This document shows positions 4,934 through 64,000 of a stretch of DNA of 64,000 bases, in pieces. The notes beneath the pieces are model-generated. The model did no database searches. It saw only the letters and a program-made list of their open reading frames with translations, and was not told the DNA's origin. The stretch's first letter is position 1, and each line of letters begins with the position of its first letter. The DNA is taken from contig JACRJZ010000150.1 in assembly GCA_016219875.1 (NCBI GenBank), positions 870 through 64,869 on the forward strand, read 5' to 3'. The stretch comes from Verrucomicrobiota bacterium. Lineage in GTDB: Bacteria; Verrucomicrobiota; Verrucomicrobiia; Limisphaerales; JACRJZ01. The position numbers were made by a program, and so were the translations under genes.

Positions 4934-4954
4934 ACGCGGAATCCGAGAGAGGCG

Positions 4955-5042
4955 ATTTCAAAACCTCGTAGCAGCCGACACAAGGAGGCTCAGACTTCAG
5001 TGGAATCAGAGCCTCCTCACGTCGGCTGCTACGGTTTTGAAA
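4955..5042. repeat. family A palindromic element (MITE/REP-like)
   Basis: Arms CGTAGCAGCCGACACAAGGAGGCTC (4967-) and GAGCCTCCTCACGTCGGCTGCTACGG (5009-5034), flanked by the short inverted repeat TTTCAAAACC/GGTTTTGAAA. It produces the spurious N-terminal extension [12 protein letters not shown] on ORF 5000..7870. Confidence 0.6.
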
Positions 5043-5098
5043 CCGGCTCCGAGATATTCGATTTGCCAGCGCGTTGGTTTCTCCGTACACCAGTGCCC

Positions 5099-11000: not shown

Positions 11001-11056
11001 ACCCCGTCGGGCGCGAACGGGCTGAGCGGAGTTCGCCGGGTCGGGGTATGTGCTTA

Positions 11057-11195
11057 GCGTAGCGCAGGTTTTCAACCTGCGGGACGTTGCCGGGCGAAGG
11101 CGGGTACGAACGCGGCGTGTTTCTAAACCGGCCACGCCCTGCCGACTGCAAGTCGGCGATACAGCAGGCTGGAAAGCCTGCGCTACGACGCTAAA
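11057..11195. repeat. family B element, partial (internal hairpin modules, no terminal inverted repeats)
   Basis: CGTAGCGCAGGTTTTCAACCTGCG ... GCCGACTGCAAGTCGGCGATACAGCAGGCTGGAAAGCCTGCGCTACGACG. Confidence 0.5.
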
Positions 11196-11203
11196 CACAT
11201 ACG

Positions 11204-11250
11204 GGTCGGGGAACCCGGCCTACAGGAAAAGCGTGTCTGGTAGGCCCGGA
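11204..11250. repeat. family C REP-like palindrome
   Basis: GGGGAACCCGGCCTACAGG...CTGGTAGGCCCGG. Confidence 0.45.
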
Positions 11251-11317
11251 GCACGCACCACGCTCTGGCCCGAAAAATGGCTGGCGTCGCGCCGCGTCAT
11301 CTGCTACAAGCGCGTCC

Positions 11318-11767
11318 ATGAAACGCCTTTTATCCCTGGCAGTTTTGGCCGCGCTGGCGGCACTTCTTCACGCGCAACAATACGAGATCAAGTGGAGCAC
11401 CATCGATGGCGGTGGCGGCACCAGCACCGGCGGCGTCTATTCCGTCAGCGGCACCATCGGCCAGCCCGACGCCGGCGCCATGATCGGCGGCAGCTACTCG
11501 GTGGTGGGCGGCTTCTGGAGCTTTGCGGCGGCCGTCCAGACGCCCGGCTCGCCCGTGCTCAGGATCGTTGGCGCCACTCCGAACGTCGTCGTCTGCTGGC
11601 CCGATCCTTCCAGCGGCTTCAGTCTGCAACAGACCCACGTCCTGGCCACACCTCCGGCCACGAGCGCGTGGACCGCGGTAACCAACAGCGCCGTTGTCGT
11701 CGAGGGCGAGAAGACGGTCACGTTGCCCGCCGTGCCAGGGGACACCTACTTCCGTCTCGTCAAGTAA
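11318..11767 (+). CDS. secreted hypothetical protein carrying the C-terminal FYRL module
   Basis: Signal peptide MKRLLSLAVLAALAALLHA. Gly-rich repeats (GGVYSVSGTIGQPDAG / GGSYSVVGGFW). C-terminal ~60 aa end ...DTYFRLVK. Confidence 0.55.
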   Translation: MKRLLSLAVLAALAALLHAQQYEIKWSTIDGGGGTSTGGVYSVSGTIGQPDAGAMIGGSYSVVGGFWSFAAAVQTPGSPVLRIVGATPNVVVCWPDPSSGFSLQQTHVLATPPATSAWTAVTNSAVVVEGEKTVTLPAVPGDTYFRLVK

Positions 11768-11816
11768 GCCCGCGCAGCCCAGCCGCCAACCTCGGTGAGT
11801 TCAAGAATCCCTGGAT

Positions 11817-11891
11817 CGTAGCCGCCGACGTGAGGAGGCTCTGTTTTCAAATCCGAAATCAAAACAGAGCCTCCTCACGTCGGCTGCTACG
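11817..11891. repeat. family A palindromic element
   Basis: CGTAGCCGCCGACGTGAGGAGGCTC - TGTTTTCAAATCCGAAATCAAAACA - GAGCCTCCTCACGTCGGCTGCTACG. The loop is itself palindromic. Confidence 0.65.
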
Positions 11892-11935
11892 CTTTCTTGA
11901 ATCTGGGCAACCCGATCAGGAGATCGCCTTGAGAC

Positions 11936-13276
11936 ATGACAACGAACTGCGCAATGAGGTCGCCGGCGACAGCCCTCATCGTGGCGGTGCTGGCCTCTTG
12001 GTGGGTGGCGGCCCAATCGCCCCCGCCGTTCGAGAGCGTGGGATTGCCGGATCACTTCGTCGCCACGCTTGCGTTGCAAACGTCGAACGGCCAGGTGAGC
12101 GCGGGATCAGCGGCCTTCCAAGTTGACTGCACCCGCCTGCAGTTTGTGGTGAACCTCGAACAAGCGTTTACCAATGTTACTGGAACGACTTTGCGAACGG
12201 GCACTCGCCAAGTGCGCGTGGACCTTGGCCCGGGCACGATGGCGTTCGGAGCCAAGATCGCTTCCGAAGGAGTGGCCGCTGCAGCGGGAAAGCCGAACCT
12301 CCTGGCCGGCAATCCCAAGGCGCTCGCGCCCATCCGATACGCCGGCGCCGTTCCGCTGCATGTGACGCTGCTGCGTGAGTTGCAGACTGGCCAAGGCGTC
12401 CTGCGCCTCATTCTCAAAGCACCGGAGGGACAGGGGGCCGCTTTGCCCATTGTGGAAGGACCACTGCTGGCCGTGACGAATGCCGGTGCCACCAATCCCC
12501 TGCCCTGCTGGCCGCGGAGTCCGAGATCGGTGACCGCTCGATACACGGCTGGGCCGGCCTTCGCGGTGCCGTTTGACATCTACGCCGACGGTGTCGGTGA
12601 AGTGGACGTGGACGCCGAGGGCGAGACAGATTTCTTCTTTTGTGTCAGCACTCTTTGCGTAGGTCCGACAGGCGGGGGATACCCGTGCCCGTTCCCGATT
12701 TCGGTGACGTGTTTCGGAACGAACCAGATGCTGGCCCGCAGCTACAAGGCGGCCGTGTTGGCCATCGGTGCGACGATCGGTCCCGCCCCGCCCGCGGAGT
12801 CGAGTTGGACGAAGTACAACGTCCGCTTGACCAGTCTGACGGACCCTGGCCCGGTGGCCACGGACGATCTAGGCCGCCTGGGCGAAGGCTACTTGGGCCT
12901 GCGGCTGCGGCAAGCGGACGGCTGGCATTACGGCTGGATGCGGGTGCATCTATCCAGCGCGGCGCCCAATCCGTTCTGGCCAGTGCCCGTGATCGAGGAC
13001 TGGGCCTACGAGCCGGCCCCTGACACGGCCATTCTGGCGGGTGCCAGGCCCGTTCCGGTCCCGCTGCGGAACGACGGCCTCCAGGCTTCGGGCCGCCTGC
13101 GCATGACGTTCACGGGTGAAATCGGCCAGGCCTACACGCTGCAATTCCGGCCCGAACTAACGGTGGGATGGTGGACCAACTTGAGCGGAGCCTTGATCAG
13201 CACCGCGCGCGAAGTGCTGTTGGACGTGTCGCTGACAGGGCCAAGCGGATTCTATCGGGTCATCGAAGCGGAGTAG
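11936..13276 (+). CDS. secreted hypothetical protein carrying the C-terminal FYRV module
   Basis: Signal peptide (ALIVAVLASWWVAAQS). No recognisable catalytic motifs. C-terminal ...GPSGFYRVIEAE. Confidence 0.55.
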   Translation: MTTNCAMRSPATALIVAVLASWWVAAQSPPPFESVGLPDHFVATLALQTSNGQVSAGSAAFQVDCTRLQFVVNLEQAFTNVTGTTLRTGTRQVRVDLGPGTMAFGAKIASEGVAAAAGKPNLLAGNPKALAPIRYAGAVPLHVTLLRELQTGQGVLRLILKAPEGQGAALPIVEGPLLAVTNAGATNPLPCWPRSPRSVTARYTAGPAFAVPFDIYADGVGEVDVDAEGETDFFFCVSTLCVGPTGGGYPCPFPISVTCFGTNQMLARSYKAAVLAIGATIGPAPPAESSWTKYNVRLTSLTDPGPVATDDLGRLGEGYLGLRLRQADGWHYGWMRVHLSSAAPNPFWPVPVIEDWAYEPAPDTAILAGARPVPVPLRNDGLQASGRLRMTFTGEIGQAYTLQFRPELTVGWWTNLSGALISTAREVLLDVSLTGPSGFYRVIEAE

Positions 13277-34417: not shown

Positions 34418-34507
34418 CGTAGCAGCCGACGTAAGAAGGCTTCGCTCAATTGCAGATTGCAGATTGCAGATTGCGGATTGGAGTTGGAGCCTCCTCATGT
34501 CGGCAGG
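34418..34507. repeat. family A element variant with a (CAGATTG)4 microsatellite in the loop
   Basis: Arm CGTAGCAGCCGACGTAAGAAGGCT; loop with CAGATTGCAGATTGCAGATTGCGGATTG (34453-34480); arm GGAGCCTCCTCATGTCGGCAG. The arms have diverged. Confidence 0.5.
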
Positions 34508-59968: not shown

Positions 59969-60059
59969 AGGTTCGTTCGTTATTGCTCAAATTCAGGGCG
60001 GCGAAGTTAGCGGAACGAGAGGGCTTGTCAACGGCAGGTTCTGCGGGACCGGCCCGCTC

Positions 60060-60265
60060 CAGCGCGGCGCGGCCCAACCGTCATCCAAGTAGCGCAGGCT
60101 TTCCAGTCTGCCGTAGCGCCGGTTTTCCAACCGGCGAGCGTTGGAAGAGGCCAACCGGCTGGAAATTTCACGGCCTGGCCGACTGCGAGTCGGCGATACG
60201 GCAGGTTGAAAACCTGCGCTACCCGGTGTGCCGGGCGGGAGCTTGATGCAGCCCTGGCCCGCCCC
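60060..60265. repeat. family B MITE-like element (one terminal inverted repeat retained)
   Basis: GTAGCGCAGGCTTTCCAGTCTGCCGTAGCGCCGGTTTTCCAACCGGCGAGCG...GCCGACTGCGAGTCGGCGATACGGCAGGTTGAAAACCTGCGCTAC...GGGAGCTTGATGCAGCCC. Confidence 0.6.
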
Positions 60266-60315
60266 GCCGTGGGCCACGAATCTCTACAGTTGATTCGTGC
60301 CCGCCGTCTGGTCCA

Positions 60316-62283
60316 ATGGCGCCGATGAGAAGCGGCGGACTTCTGGGAACGAGTTGGCGCGCGGGCTTGTGCCTGGCGGGCAGCCTGACGCTGGGAGCGG
60401 AGTCAGGGAACAACGCCGAGTTCCTCTCGCCCTCGGCCTTGGTGGCCTCGCCCAGCGGTCATCAACTCTACGTCGGTTGCGCGACCGCCAGCCAGTGCCT
60501 CGTCGTGGACACCGAACGTCTGCAAGTCACCCGGAGCCTTCCTTTGCCTGGGCCGTGTTCTGGATTGGCGCTGACAGCCGATGGAACGCGCCTCTTCCTG
60601 ACCAGCCCGTCGCCCGCCAGCCGGGTCTTCATCGTGGACACGACGACGGGCACAGTCGTCGGCTCAATGCCGGCAGGGCACACGGCGGTCGATCCGGTGT
60701 TGGCGGGCGACGGCACGACGCTCTTTGTGTGCAGCCGTTTCGACAACGTGATCCGGGTGCTGGACGTGGCGGCGCGCGTTGAGCGAGCGAGCATTCCCAT
60801 GTCGCGCGAGCCAATTTCGGAAGCACTGACGCCGGACGGGCAATGGTTGCTGGTGGCGAATCACCTGCCCACCGGGCCGGCGACCCTTCCGCACATCGCA
60901 GCCAAGGTCATCCTGGTGGATGCAGCCAAGCGGAGGGTTCAGAAGGAATTCCTCCTGCCCGATGGCAGCATGGAGTTGCGGGACATCCGGGTTTCACAGG
61001 ATGGGAATTGCGCGTGTGTGCCGCACTTGCTGGCGCGCTATCAAGATCCCACGGAGCGCATCGAGCGCGGCGCCATCAATCGCAACGTGCTGACCGTCCT
61101 CGACATCGCGCGTCGCACACTGCTGGGCACGGTGGCGCTGGATGAAGCGGGGCGCGGCGCAGCCAATCCGTGGGCTTTGGCCTGGTCTGGCGACGGACGC
61201 TGGCTCTGCGTCACGCACGCCGGCACGCACGAACTGAGCGTGATCGACTGGCCGGCCTTCGTGGCGAAACTTCGCTCTCGTTCGAGGCAATTGCAGAACC
61301 CCGTAGCAGCCGACGTGAGGAGGCTCAAACTTCAAGGGAAACAGAGCCTCCTCACGTCGGCTGCTACAGTTCTGAAAGAGGCTCGTTCTGCGGTTGTTTC
61401 CCCGCCGGGCGCGACCAATGACCTGACCGCCGACTTCGAGTTCCTTTCGGGACTCCGCCGTCGCGTGCCACTCACCGTCAACGGTCCCCGGTCGGTGGCA
61501 GTCGTCGGCTCGCGCGCTTTCGTGGCGGGGTACTTCTCGGATTCGCTGGACATCGTGGAACTCAGCCGCCCGGCGGCCGCGATCCGCTCAGTGGCCTTGG
61601 GGTCTTCGCCGACGACTTCGCGGAAGCGGCAAGGCGAAATGTTCTTCAACGACGCCACGCTTTGCCGGGAAGGCTGGCAGAGTTGTGCCAGTTGCCACGG
61701 GGACGATGGCCGGATCGATGCGTTGAATTGGGATTTGCCCAACGATGGCCTCGGCAATCCCAAGGACACCCGCAGCCTGGTCTTCGCGCAGAGCACGCCA
61801 CCTTCCATGAGCCTCGGCGTGCGGGCGAACTCCCGCGCCGCCGTCCGCGCCGGTCTCAAGAGCACTCTCTTCAGCGATGAACTCGAACCGGCGGCGAGCG
61901 CGATGGACGCCTGGATCAGATCGCTCCAACCGTTGCCCAGTCCTTATCTGGTCCACGGCGTTCTGTCGCCGGCCGCCCAACGCGGCGAGCGGCTGTTTCA
62001 CGACCCAAAGGTCGGATGCGCTTGGTGTCATCCGGCGGGGCTGTTCTCCGACTTGCGGAGCTACGATGTCGGCACGCGCGCGCGGACGGACCAGCCGGAC
62101 GACGTGTTCGATACCCCGACGCTGTGCGAAGTGTGGCGCACGGCACCGTATCTGCACGACGGCTCGGCCGGGACGCTGCGCGAAGTGTTGACCACGCGCA
62201 ATCCCGCCGACCGGCATGGACGGACCTCGCATCTCACGGTCGCGGAGATTGAAGCTCTGATCGCTTACCTGCTCTCGCTGTGA
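60316..62283 (+). CDS. beta-propeller (YVTN-type) protein fused to a C-terminal di-haem cytochrome c peroxidase/MauG-like domain
   Basis: N-terminal signal-like segment. Repeated LYVGC.../LFLTS.../LFVCS.../LLVAN... propeller blades. Haem motifs CASCH and CAWCH; TPTLCEVWRTAPYLHDGSAGTLREV is typical of the CCP family. It contains an in-frame family A repeat at 61302-61367. Confidence 0.7.
   Translation: MAPMRSGGLLGTSWRAGLCLAGSLTLGAESGNNAEFLSPSALVASPSGHQLYVGCATASQCLVVDTERLQVTRSLPLPGPCSGLALTADGTRLFLTSPSPASRVFIVDTTTGTVVGSMPAGHTAVDPVLAGDGTTLFVCSRFDNVIRVLDVAARVERASIPMSREPISEALTPDGQWLLVANHLPTGPATLPHIAAKVILVDAAKRRVQKEFLLPDGSMELRDIRVSQDGNCACVPHLLARYQDPTERIERGAINRNVLTVLDIARRTLLGTVALDEAGRGAANPWALAWSGDGRWLCVTHAGTHELSVIDWPAFVAKLRSRSRQLQNPVAADVRRLKLQGKQSLLTSAATVLKEARSAVVSPPGATNDLTADFEFLSGLRRRVPLTVNGPRSVAVVGSRAFVAGYFSDSLDIVELSRPAAAIRSVALGSSPTTSRKRQGEMFFNDATLCREGWQSCASCHGDDGRIDALNWDLPNDGLGNPKDTRSLVFAQSTPPSMSLGVRANSRAAVRAGLKSTLFSDELEPAASAMDAWIRSLQPLPSPYLVHGVLSPAAQRGERLFHDPKVGCAWCHPAGLFSDLRSYDVGTRARTDQPDDVFDTPTLCEVWRTAPYLHDGSAGTLREVLTTRNPADRHGRTSHLTVAEIEALIAYLLSL
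61302..61367. mobile_element. family A palindromic element (66 bp) inserted in frame within a coding sequence
   Basis: CGTAGCAGCCGACGTGAGGAGGCTC-AAACTTCAAGGGAAACA-GAGCCTCCTCACGTCGGCTGCTAC, translated as ...[25 protein letters not shown]... within ORF 60316..62283. Propeller-like sequence continues on both sides. Confidence 0.65.
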
Positions 62284-62288
62284 GGGCA

Positions 62289-62486
62289 GGGCTGCATCAA
62301 GCTCCCGCCCGGCGCACCGGGTAGCGCAGGTTTTCCAACCTGCCGTAGCGCCGACTTGCAGTCGGCCAGGCCGTGAAACTTTCAGCCGGCTGGCCTCGCC
62401 CAACGCTCGCCGGTTGGAAAGCCGGCGCTACGGCAGGCTGGAAAGCCTGCGCTACGAAGGCTCCCGAACCGAGCTTGATGCAGCCC
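62289..62486. repeat. family B MITE-like element, complete (198 bp, 16-17-bp terminal inverted repeats)
   Basis: Left GGGCTGCATCAAGCTCC, right GAGCTTGATGCAGCCC. The internal modules match 38734..38939 almost base for base. Confidence 0.7.
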
Positions 62487-62577
62487 CGCTGTGAGTGGGC
62501 GGGCCGAAAAAATCGTTGGCACGCCGCCGATCTTCCGTTAAGCCTCGCGGCAGAGTTTCACACAGAATGACACGGCC

Positions 62578-63900
62578 ATGAGTTCGAAGCACCGGAGACA
62601 TCGGGGACGAAACCGCCACGGGAAGCCGCACGGGCGCGCTTCGGAAACCAACCACGCGGACGGGCCGAACAGCGGCCCTTCTTCCGCCCGCAGCGACGCA
62701 CGGGGAAAAGGAGCCGCCGGATCGAGGATCTGGCTCGCCATGCTGGCGTTGGCGCTCCTGGCCGGCTTGGCCGTGTACGCGGTGAAAGTAATGAAAGCCG
62801 GCAAAGCGGCCAACGGCAGCAACCCTGGCTCGAACTTGCCTCCAGCGAGCGCCAGCGCCCCGGTGGTTCCGGTCGCGACCGCGCCGCCTGCTCCCGCTGC
62901 TCCGGCTGCTGTCCCCGTCAGTTCCGGCCCGAAAATCCAGTTCGCGTCGCTGACCTACGACTTTGGCAAAGCGAACGGCGATGACGTGGTGAATGGCCTC
63001 TTCACGTTCACCAACGTCGGCAATGCGCGGCTGGAGGTCACCGACGTGGCGCCTTCGTGCGGTTGCCTGAAAGTCGGCGAGTGGACGCGCACGGTCGAAG
63101 CCGGCCAGGCCGGTTCCATCGCCGTCCGATTTGACACTCACCACTACACGGGCTTTTTCGCGAAGTCAGTCTTCGTGACGTGCAACGACGCCAGCCAGCC
63201 CAAGTTGTCGCTGGAGATCAAGGGCAACATCTGGCGACCGATCGAAGTGACGCCGCCCACGGCGGTCCTCAACCTCAATGCCGAGAGTCCCTCCAACGCC
63301 ACGACGATCCGCATTGTCAGCCACCTGGACGACCCGCTCATCCTCTCGGACCTGACGAATACGAGCCGCGCGTTCGCCGTCGAGTTGCAGACCAACCAAC
63401 CGGGCAAGGCCTATCAACTGATCGTGAAGACCGCGCCGCCGTGGCCGAGGAGCAGTGTGCAGGGCCAGATCACGCTGAAGACCTCCGCCACAAACATGCC
63501 GGTGATCAACCTCATGGCTTGGGCGAACGTGCTGCCCGTGGTGATGGCCATTCCTCAAGTGGTCCGGCTGCCCGAGGCGCCGTTGACGAACCCGTTTACC
63601 GCCACGATCTGGGTCCAGAACAACGGGACGAACACGATCAAGTTGTCTGAACCCGCCGTGAACGCGAAAGGGGTGACGGCGAGAATCCGGGAGGACCAGC
63701 CGGGCCGGATGAGCACCGTGATGATGGATTTCCCGACGGGATTTGAAATCGCTGCCGGCGAGAAGGTCGAACTGAGCGTCAAGTCCACGCACCCGCTCTT
63801 CCCCACCATCAAGGTGCCGATGATGCAGGCGCCGCGTCTTGCGCCGGTCGCAGTGCCGTCGCCAAAACCGCCTGCCCAAACGAATTCGGCTGGGAAGTGA
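62578..63900 (+). CDS. membrane-anchored DUF1573-domain protein
   Basis: Basic cytoplasmic N-terminus, transmembrane segment IWLAMLALALLAGLAVYAV, Pro/Ala linker, then a DUF1573-like module (FDFG..., NVGNARLEVTDVAPSCGCL) followed by further beta-rich repeats. Confidence 0.6.
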   Translation: MSSKHRRHRGRNRHGKPHGRASETNHADGPNSGPSSARSDARGKGAAGSRIWLAMLALALLAGLAVYAVKVMKAGKAANGSNPGSNLPPASASAPVVPVATAPPAPAAPAAVPVSSGPKIQFASLTYDFGKANGDDVVNGLFTFTNVGNARLEVTDVAPSCGCLKVGEWTRTVEAGQAGSIAVRFDTHHYTGFFAKSVFVTCNDASQPKLSLEIKGNIWRPIEVTPPTAVLNLNAESPSNATTIRIVSHLDDPLILSDLTNTSRAFAVELQTNQPGKAYQLIVKTAPPWPRSSVQGQITLKTSATNMPVINLMAWANVLPVVMAIPQVVRLPEAPLTNPFTATIWVQNNGTNTIKLSEPAVNAKGVTARIREDQPGRMSTVMMDFPTGFEIAAGEKVELSVKSTHPLFPTIKVPMMQAPRLAPVAVPSPKPPAQTNSAGK

Positions 63901-63930: not shown

Positions 63931-63960
63931 CTCTGTAGCAGCCGACGTGAGGAGGCTCAG
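63931..63960. repeat. family A element, first arm (window ends before the second arm)
   Basis: CTGTAGCAGCCGACGTGAGGAGGCTCAG. Confidence 0.45.
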
Positions 63961-64000
63961 GTCGGTGGGGCGAGCGTCCCCGCGAGCCGCCCAAGATCCA

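Follow-up and report, generated by a model that had tools for sequence, protein, structure and literature searches.

The window analysed here, a 64-kb stretch of contig JACRJZ010000150.1 from a Verrucomicrobiota bacterium (all coordinates follow its numbering), contains a gene for a β-propeller/cytochrome c peroxidase (CCP) protein with a palindromic repeat lying in frame inside its coding sequence. The inserted DNA amounts to 105 bp, and the repeat within it is probably the 98-bp version of a GTAG-tagged repetitive extragenic palindromic (REP/REPIN) repeat, linked to a REP-associated tyrosine transposase (RAYT), that entered the propeller/peroxidase coding sequence without disturbing its reading frame.

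Boundaries of the insertion and condition of the host gene

At the centre of the element is a hairpin whose two 24-nt arms (61303-61326 and 61344-61367) are 100% complementary and enclose a 17-nt loop, in the order GTAGCAGCCGACGTGAGGAGGCTC, AAACTTCAAGGGAAACA, GAGCCTCCTCACGTCGGCTGCTAC. The hairpin lies inside the host open reading frame (ORF), where it is translated as V330-T351 with no stop. Folded as RNA, the 112-nt region reaches -69.2 kcal/mol (z = -10.8 relative to shuffles), and outer arms on either side extend the 65-bp core hairpin to the 98-bp element. The host gene and the parts of the insert are as follows.

60316..62283, + strand: host gene, an ORF of 655 aa encoding a secreted YncE/YVTN-like β-propeller plus dihaem cytochrome c peroxidase (CCP/MauG-like)
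61277..61283, + strand: left direct repeat CTCGTTC, a possible target-site duplication, read from the sequence and the best flank repeat in the scan
61284..61302, + strand: outer left arm of the 98-bp element, GAGGCAATTGCAGAACCCC, which pairs with 61368-61381 in the RNA fold
61303..61326, + strand: left REP arm GTAGCAGCCGACGTGAGGAGGCTC, comprising the GTAG tag and the stem, translated VAADVRRL
61327..61343, + strand: loop AAACTTCAAGGGAAACA, 17 nt, translated KLQGKQ
61344..61367, + strand: right REP arm GAGCCTCCTCACGTCGGCTGCTAC, translated SLLTSAAT
61368..61381, + strand: outer right arm AGTTCTGAAAGAGG, placed by outer-arm comparison, RNA fold and in-silico excision
61382..61388, + strand: right direct repeat CTCGTTC, placed by the excision of 61284-61388, which gives a gapless alignment

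Alignment with orthologues, one of the checks proposed in an initial annotation of this DNA, defines the inserted segment. P0002 and P0003, which at 71-75% identity are the closest orthologues (616 aa), are short of exactly 35 residues at the site, and the DNA alignment with the orthologue loci L001 and L002 shows a 105-nt gap. The inserted DNA (35 codons) corresponds to 61284-61388 or, equivalently, to 61277-61381, and is laid out as CTCGTTC (61277-61283), the 98-bp palindromic element (61284-61381, composed of GAGGCAATTGCAGAACCCC, the core hairpin and AGTTCTGAAAGAGG) and a second CTCGTTC (61382-61388). Deletion of 61284-61388 in silico yields ...AKLRSRSAVVSPPGATNDLT..., which aligns without a gap to ...AKLASRSAARPWPGSTGDLT... 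of P0002 and P0003. The initial annotation had described an in-frame insertion, and this description agrees with the alignment and with its gapless state after excision; the gene is otherwise intact. Its span of 61302-61367 captured the hairpin with one base too many (61303-61367), and its size of 66 bp, or 22 codons, gives way to 105 bp, or 35 codons, when measured against the orthologues.

Neither VAADVRR, SLLTSAA nor any related peptide occurs in the 119 other best homologues, and a gain in the host lineage is therefore the parsimonious reading. The evidence for mobility is the presence of the element at the host site and its absence from the orthologues. No copy of the arm is found in the relatives' loci L001-L004, a result that concerns these loci and not the rest of those genomes. 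The 105 nt can be read in six combinations of phase and orientation, three of which are free of stops, and because 98 + 7 = 105, the downstream frame is always preserved, provided that the 7-bp duplication is real.

The host gene is a single gene without visible decay. Pfam assigns CCP_MauG and RoxA-like_Cyt-c to the C-terminus of the protein and propeller families to the N-terminus; its 3182 homologues have the same architecture, and one NCBI protein, from a Verrucomicrobia metagenome-assembled genome (MAG), is identical to it. All 63 aligned homologues share the propeller and the CCP, which establishes one gene rather than the two that the initial annotation had raised as an alternative. Both CxxCH haem motifs are retained (C457/C460/H461 and C568/C571/H572). 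A column was counted as near-invariant when 62 or more of the 64 sequences agree; at the 134 such columns the host protein deviates twice, as does the closest orthologue (P0002), and family members range from 0 to 5 deviations.

In the AlphaFold2 (AF2) model, built from the alignment of 64 sequences, the propeller is of high confidence (predicted template modelling score, pTM, 0.81), and the best PDB fold match is the β-propeller subunit of hydrazine synthase (5c2v_B). The added residues, approximately 324-358, follow the strand 306-311 and the conserved helix 312-326 and precede the strand 381-385, so that by the count of DSSP strands in the model the insertion site is an excursion inside the sixth blade. 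The predicted local distance difference test (pLDDT) is 51-59 across residues 331-370, compared with more than 90 in the neighbouring blocks, and the helices modelled at 329-340 and 349-359 share this low confidence. The linker between the columns of L319 and D373 measures 10-42 residues in the 63 homologues and 53 here. Judged from the model, the site is probably permissive and surface-exposed. This structure model, the other check that had been proposed, places the insert in the excursion between strands 306-311 and 381-385; it thereby favours the earlier suggestion that the protein tolerates a loop insertion, in that the excursion is length-variable and of low confidence, with the correction that the insert comprises 35 residues and not 22.

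The repeat family, its RAYT-like genes and its in-frame copies

The arm was searched for in the window with up to 3 mismatches allowed, with 100 dinucleotide-preserving shuffles as the control. The search returned eight matches, compared with none in the shuffles, and these make up five copies per 64 kb; with the perfect 24-nt arms, they confirm the palindrome inside ORF 60316..62283 as the member of a repeat family that the initial annotation had taken it to be. Each arm has GTAG at its start or, on the other strand, CTAC at its end. Apart from the copy in the host gene, the fourth in order, the window contains the following copies, to which no strand is assigned.

4942..5054: copy 1, an intergenic sister copy of the 98-bp subfamily, with its core hairpin at 4968-5032 and the element at 4949-5047
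11818..11890: copy 2, intergenic, with other outer arms (TTCAAGAA / TTCTTGAA) and a 25-nt loop
34400..34515: copy 3, a degenerate copy of the 98-bp subfamily, with its core at 34419-~34505, an eroded right arm and a loop of four cagattg repeats
63935..64000: copy 5, the left arm of a further copy, 35 nt 3' of ORF 62578-63900 and cut by the window end

The outer left sequence GAGGCAATTGCAGAACCCC is common to the copies starting at 4949, 34400 and 61284 and to locus L039, and the sister copy is flanked by the 7-bp direct repeat TCCGAGA at 4942-4948 and 5048-5054. Copies 1, 2 and 5 adjoin the ends or starts of ORFs, and no ORF of at least 100 aa runs over copy 3 in the window. ORF 11050-12126 (358 codons), which covers copy 2, was considered as a second intragenic case and rejected, its translation being an Arg-rich, low-complexity spurious frame in GC-rich DNA.

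Other identities for the hairpin were also considered. The Rfam scan of the whole window at gathering thresholds returned no family, and the promoter and terminator scan of 60000-62600 returned nothing at the hairpin; an intrinsic terminator was rejected, as a T-run is absent after the hairpin. The stem-loop formed by a single arm in classical REPs was likewise rejected, with only 4 bp (AGCC/GGCT) able to pair, and the arm variant of L117 turns one of these pairs from C-G to A-A, a change that is not compensatory.

Beyond the window, the exact 21-nt core of the arm (bases 4-24 of GTAGCAGCCGACGTGAGGAGGCTC) was scanned against species-representative genomes, and the family counts given throughout are those among the matches listed. 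The core is found in more than 106 genome stretches, whose record titles are mostly Verrucomicrobiota, many of them Limisphaerales or Pedosphaera. The hairpin census, covering 110 loci, comprises 85 hairpins and 50 single arms, and the hairpin loops range from 12 to 124 nt and are mostly unrelated in sequence.

A RAYT-like gene of 188-208 aa adjoins the arm in L009, L050, L111, L117, L122 and L124. In all of these except L050, the arm stands upstream of the gene on the + strand and downstream on the - strand, in inverted arrangement; L050 is cut inside the gene, and the upstream hairpin alone is visible. The arm pair of L009 encloses a 208-aa ORF with the motifs LPDHIHLVW (HUH) and YVLMNPVKDGL (Tyr). 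Among PDB entries, this protein matches E. coli TnpA_REP best (4ER8, E = 8.5e-5), the HUH (HIH) and Tyr (YVLMNPV) motifs being aligned, and the NCBIfam family REP_Tyr_transpos (REP-associated tyrosine transposase, NF047646) matches it at E = 7e-12. Many of the 1362 homologues of the RAYT-like protein are called RayT by JGI, and the arm sequence tracks the transposase lineage, with GTAGGAGACGACGTCAGGAGACTC in L117.

Because the arm flanks RAYT-like genes, carries the GTAG tag and has a variable spacer, the best label for the element is a GTAG-tagged REP/REPIN-type repeat, arranged as a tail-to-tail doublet. The short, GC-rich, multi-copy palindrome of REP/REPIN repeats is present at five copies per 64 kb, the 5' GTAG (GTRG) tag is found here and in a second family of the window (GTAGCGCAGGTTTTCCAACCTGC), and inverted flanking of a single HUH/Tyr gene is seen at five complete loci in related genomes. 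The family is not predominantly extragenic, at least 20 of its 87 hairpins lying in frame inside genes. The term 'MITE-like' (MITE standing for miniature inverted-repeat transposable element) used in the initial annotation is better replaced by this RAYT-linked label, with the 7-bp repeats leaving room for a MITE-like mechanism in the 98-bp subfamily.

Two ORFs of L009 overlap copies of the repeat. An NHL-type propeller ORF (15-938) runs into the upstream REP hairpin and takes its C-terminal residues from it, and the RAYT-like ORF (935-1561) ends within a further right-arm copy (QSLLTSVAT).

In-frame copies are frequent in the family. At least one stop-free frame is present in 84 of the 87 hairpins, and approximately 34 of the 87 lie in ORFs with 80 or more open codons to either side, the threshold by which in-frame candidates were defined. 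Pfam verification was run on 20 of these ~34 candidates, and all 20 are real genes, with domains spanning or flanking the hairpin, which brings the in-frame share of family hairpins to at least 20 of 87 (23% or more). The earlier statement that the element is otherwise found only between genes is thus correct for the window and incorrect for the family. The verified hosts include two class-III aminotransferases, UvrB, MutS, XseA, a Cas4-Cas1 fusion, an MbnP-CCP protein and a multihaem cytochrome; PSD/PSCyt proteins, a CHAT protein, a POT transporter, an FtsX-type permease, an alpha-2-macroglobulin and a DEAD-box helicase; and a PD-(D/E)XK nuclease, an MqnE/CofH-like radical SAM enzyme, a dynamin-like GTPase, a U32 peptidase and valyl-tRNA synthetase (ValRS). 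The in-frame hairpins are usually translated as SSRREEA...SLLTSAAT or as ...EPPHVGCY. Individual insertions and orthologous pairs are as follows.

L108 6089-6197: hairpin in ValRS, splitting the anticodon-binding domain
L030 386-458: hairpin in MutS, just before domain V
L007 3657-3726: hairpin in UvrB, in frame
L011 2470-2573: hairpin in the Cas4-Cas1 fusion, between the two domains
L016 3730-3823: hairpin in another CCP_MauG protein, in frame
L006 7089-7157 and L074 6786-6856: orthologous pair, class-III aminotransferase, hairpin at the same position
L068 3272-3368 and L100 6675-6771: orthologous pair, MqnE/CofH-like radical SAM enzyme, hairpin at the same position
L033 3624-3717 and L109 1002-1095: orthologous pair, CHAT protein, hairpin at the same position

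In the three orthologous pairs, the loops are recognisably homologous, the flanks are 71-87% identical and the arms are nearly 100% identical; the sequences indicate that these insertions are older than the species splits. The left arms of L006 and L074 are read in different frames, and therefore it is the DNA and not the peptide that is conserved. The arms of such persistent copies may be kept by selection, gene conversion or transposase activity. A broader proposal, that intragenic copies are maintained phylum-wide at the nucleic-acid level for a RAYT- or structure-dependent function in coding regions, is rather unlikely. If the copies were so maintained, they might for instance act in the processing or stability of mRNA, serve as signals for replication or repair, or undergo concerted homogenisation, and a quarter or more of the copies would be embedded in proteins, including those of valS, mutS and uvrB.

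The census also brings out regularities of loops and arms. Loop lengths are biased to 1 mod 3 (44 of 85 in the window and L005-L110, with peaks at 22, 25 and 46 nt), the phase that gives both arms as SSRREEA...SLLTSAAT; the tally takes genic and intergenic copies together. Loops containing 7-nt tandem repeats occur at 34443-34485 of the window and in L012, L016, L023, L027, L033, L047, L079, L085 and L089, with units (cagattg, cggagtg, aatcggc, ttcggat, attccgc) that vary in sequence by copy and always keep the period of 7. In many hairpins an 'A' arm, GCCGACGTGAGGAGGCTC, is paired with a 'B' arm, GCCGAGGTGACGAGGCTC, producing the same two stem mismatches, C·C and G·G (for example L017, L021, L042, L048, L067, L084 and L095; L039, L054, L058, L064 and L098). 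The recurrence of these two mismatches indicates that heterodimers of two arm variants are common. Arm-bearing MAGs titled Bifidobacterium, Klebsiella or Chitinophaga are found among L006, L012, L014, L033, L034, L037, L056, L075 and L079, and these oddly titled records may be mislabelled or contaminated bins.

Origin of the insertion

In the origin that we favour, a GTAG REP/REPIN family spread through the Verrucomicrobiota, its arm bracketing in relatives a small HUH/Tyr gene (RAYT-like, IS200/IS605-related) whose product, acting on the single-stranded DNA hairpin, would mobilise the element. The 98-bp version, with its outer arms, 24-nt REP arms and 17-nt loop, would have entered the host coding sequence in the host lineage and, together with a 7-bp duplication, would have added 105 bp and 35 codons. 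Given a stop-free landing phase, the protein would simply have gained 35 residues. The insertion would then be a tolerated, essentially neutral passenger, whose persistence reflects the filtering of inserts for those that are in frame, stop-free and located in permissive loops, and the perfect 24-bp duplex in the mRNA could slow ribosomes or attract RNase III.

Several observations weigh against this origin. HUH/Y1 transposition, as in IS200/IS605, creates no target duplication, and the 7-bp direct repeats at two window copies are unexpected under it. Of the three copies of the 98-bp subfamily in the window, two are bracketed by such repeats (TCCGAGA at 4942/5048 and CTCGTTC at 61277/61382), at distances from the core of 19/15 and 19/14 respectively. 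Across the family, flank repeats of at least 7 nt accompany 8% of copies and 3.6% of the controls (mismatched flanks), a small excess, and the CTC of CTCGTTC may itself be the terminus of the element, L039 ending in ...GAAAGAGCCTC. The NF047646 match of the L009 protein scores 45 bits, below the cut-off of 80 bits, and Pfam gives no hit to the RAYT-like protein at E <= 0.01, so that it is identified through its matches in PDB and NCBIfam. Within the 64-kb window, to which the tblastn search was limited, the RAYT-like protein has no homologue. The nearest empty sites belong to genomes that are just 71-75% identical and do not fix the age of the insertion.

The direct repeats invite another explanation, in which the 98-bp unit is a true MITE, moved by a DDE-type transposase that acts on the outer ends GAGGCAATT... 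/ ...AAAGAGG and makes a 7-bp duplication, with the REP hairpin carried as cargo. It accounts for the 7-bp repeats that lie directly against the outer ends in two of three subfamily copies in the window, for the outer arms common to copies 4949, 34400, 61284 and L039, and for a total of 98 + 7 = 105 that is divisible by 3. Such an origin is nevertheless unlikely: no duplication is clear at copy 34400 or in L039, the flanks of most family members are unrelated and their flank repeats not above control, and what the phylum conserves is the GTAG arm on either side of RAYT-like genes. In the window and the loci, in which no systematic search was made, no insertion sequence ending in GAGGCAATT... 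turned up as a parent. A general target-site duplication for the whole family is not supported at 8% versus 3.6% in controls. Quite unlikely, too, is an exapted insertion, in which the hairpin in mRNA or DNA regulates the gene or the 35-residue helical excursion forms a new propeller surface. The fold is very stable (-69 kcal/mol, z = -10.8), orthologous intragenic copies keep their arms ~100% identical between coding flanks of 71-87%, the different frames of the left arm in L006 and L074 point to conservation at the nucleic-acid level, and AF2 models helices at 329-340 and 349-359. However, these helices are of low confidence (pLDDT 51-59), recent spread, gene conversion or transposase-linked maintenance could conserve the arms, the closest orthologues manage without the insert, and the same element also turns up between genes and in genes unrelated to one another, which speaks against a role specific to this gene.

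Inactivation of the gene by the insertion, making it a young pseudogene, is very unlikely. The perfect 24/24 stem does point to a recent event, and 35 residues within a propeller blade could upset folding; yet the frame is intact without stops, the protein retains all haem-binding motifs and matches the family at 132 of 134 near-invariant columns, no worse than P0002, and the insertion falls in the linker whose length varies most within the family. In other species, valS, mutS and uvrB carry comparable insertions that have persisted, and the 'pseudogene-in-waiting' of the initial annotation is disfavoured both by the two deviations in 134 columns and by the orthologous in-frame copies that persist across species in other genes, a persistence that speaks against this fate as the general one. 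A native chance palindrome or a metagenome assembly artefact at the repeat is extremely improbable. The contig does come from a MAG, in which repeats can cause mis-joins, but the shuffles yield no match, the in-frame boundaries are precise, a direct repeat is present with collinear gene sequence on either side, and the same phenomenon recurs in more than 20 independent assemblies.

Relation to known repeats

Nunvar 2010 is said to be among the sources for GTAG-tagged REPs with RAYT. GTAG REPs/REPINs and their RAYT (TnpA_REP) are known in E. coli, Pseudomonas and Stenotrophomonas (PMC3116915, PMC3479197, PMC3733652). Di Nocera 2013 distinguishes GTAG- and CGTC-tagged REP superfamilies, with GTAG REPs in the PVC superphylum and CGTC tags on the short rickettsial REPs (PMC3733652). 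Intragenic GTAG REPs are documented there for accepted REP families and are most numerous in the verrucomicrobium Opitutus terrae, in which dimers that code for 20-30 aa make up more than half of the intragenic inserts, frequently within DNA repair or tRNA-related genes (PMC3733652). The arm and peptides described here are absent from the O. terrae REP tables, whose peptides (e.g. VGPALAAG) differ from ours (PMC3733652), and no relevant paper on the arm and its peptides was found in the searchable literature.

The element resembles REP/REPIN-RAYT systems in the 5' GTAG tag of each arm, the GC-rich palindrome, the high copy number with several families per genome, the inverted arms around an HUH/Tyr transposase gene, the tail-to-tail doublets with variable spacers and the intragenic dimers. 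It differs from them in its stem of 24 nt per arm, compared with 5-13 bp in published families, and in that a single arm forms no hairpin by itself. Its RAYT-like protein is distant (no Pfam hit, below the NCBIfam cut-off), at least 23% of its copies lie in frame inside genes, and two copies have 7-bp flank repeats that HUH transposition does not predict.

A classical analogue is provided by the Rickettsia palindromic elements (RPEs), which add a surface peptide without destroying the protein and are inherited across species. Ogata et al. 2000 reportedly described such elements (RPE-1 etc.) of ~100-150 bp in frame in many unrelated genes, essential ones included. We know of no RAYT linked to RPE-1. 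The likeness to RPEs lies, by analogy, in the behaviour of an in-frame intragenic palindrome and is not one of family membership, the host phylum being another and the GTAG tag being present here.

The element shares with bacterial MITEs the form of a small, non-autonomous palindromic repeat and, at two copies, a 7-bp direct repeat of the kind that MITE-typical target-site duplications produce. MITEs have ends in common with parent DDE insertion sequences, whereas the core here is the RAYT-flanking GTAG arm. Intragenic copies, sometimes with ORFs in frame, have been found for ERIC/IRU, Correia/NEMIS and Nezha MITEs (PMC3184786, PMC10969869).

The phenomenon and the class of mechanism are known; the sequence family is new, its stem is unusually long and the fraction of its copies inside genes is high. 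The host gene offers a well-bounded example of a selfish palindrome adding a peptide to a bacterial protein, with defined boundaries, an empty orthologue site and a setting in the modelled structure. Through it, the known range of REP/RAYT repeats widens to Verrucomicrobiota whose records mostly bear the titles Limisphaerales or Pedosphaera, in the form of a long-stem GTAG family not described before. With its high intragenic fraction and its persistence across species, the family is well suited to the question of whether REPINs inside genes are neutral or maintained. For annotation, peptides of the EPPHVGCY and SLLTSAAT types are to be expected within genuine proteins of these genomes as well as in small ORFs that are spurious. 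The repeats probably break metagenome assemblies, because many RAYT contigs are shorter than 3 kb.

The second GTAG-REP family of the window, GTAGCGCAGGTTTTCCAACCTGC, is of the classical type, with 11 copies and compensatory changes in the stem. The host CCP gene is itself bracketed by palindromic clusters of ~170 nt (60089-60259 and 62284-62455), built of GTAGCGCAGGTTTTCCAACCTGC and GTAGCGCCGACTTGCAGTCGGC units and 92-96% complementary to one another.

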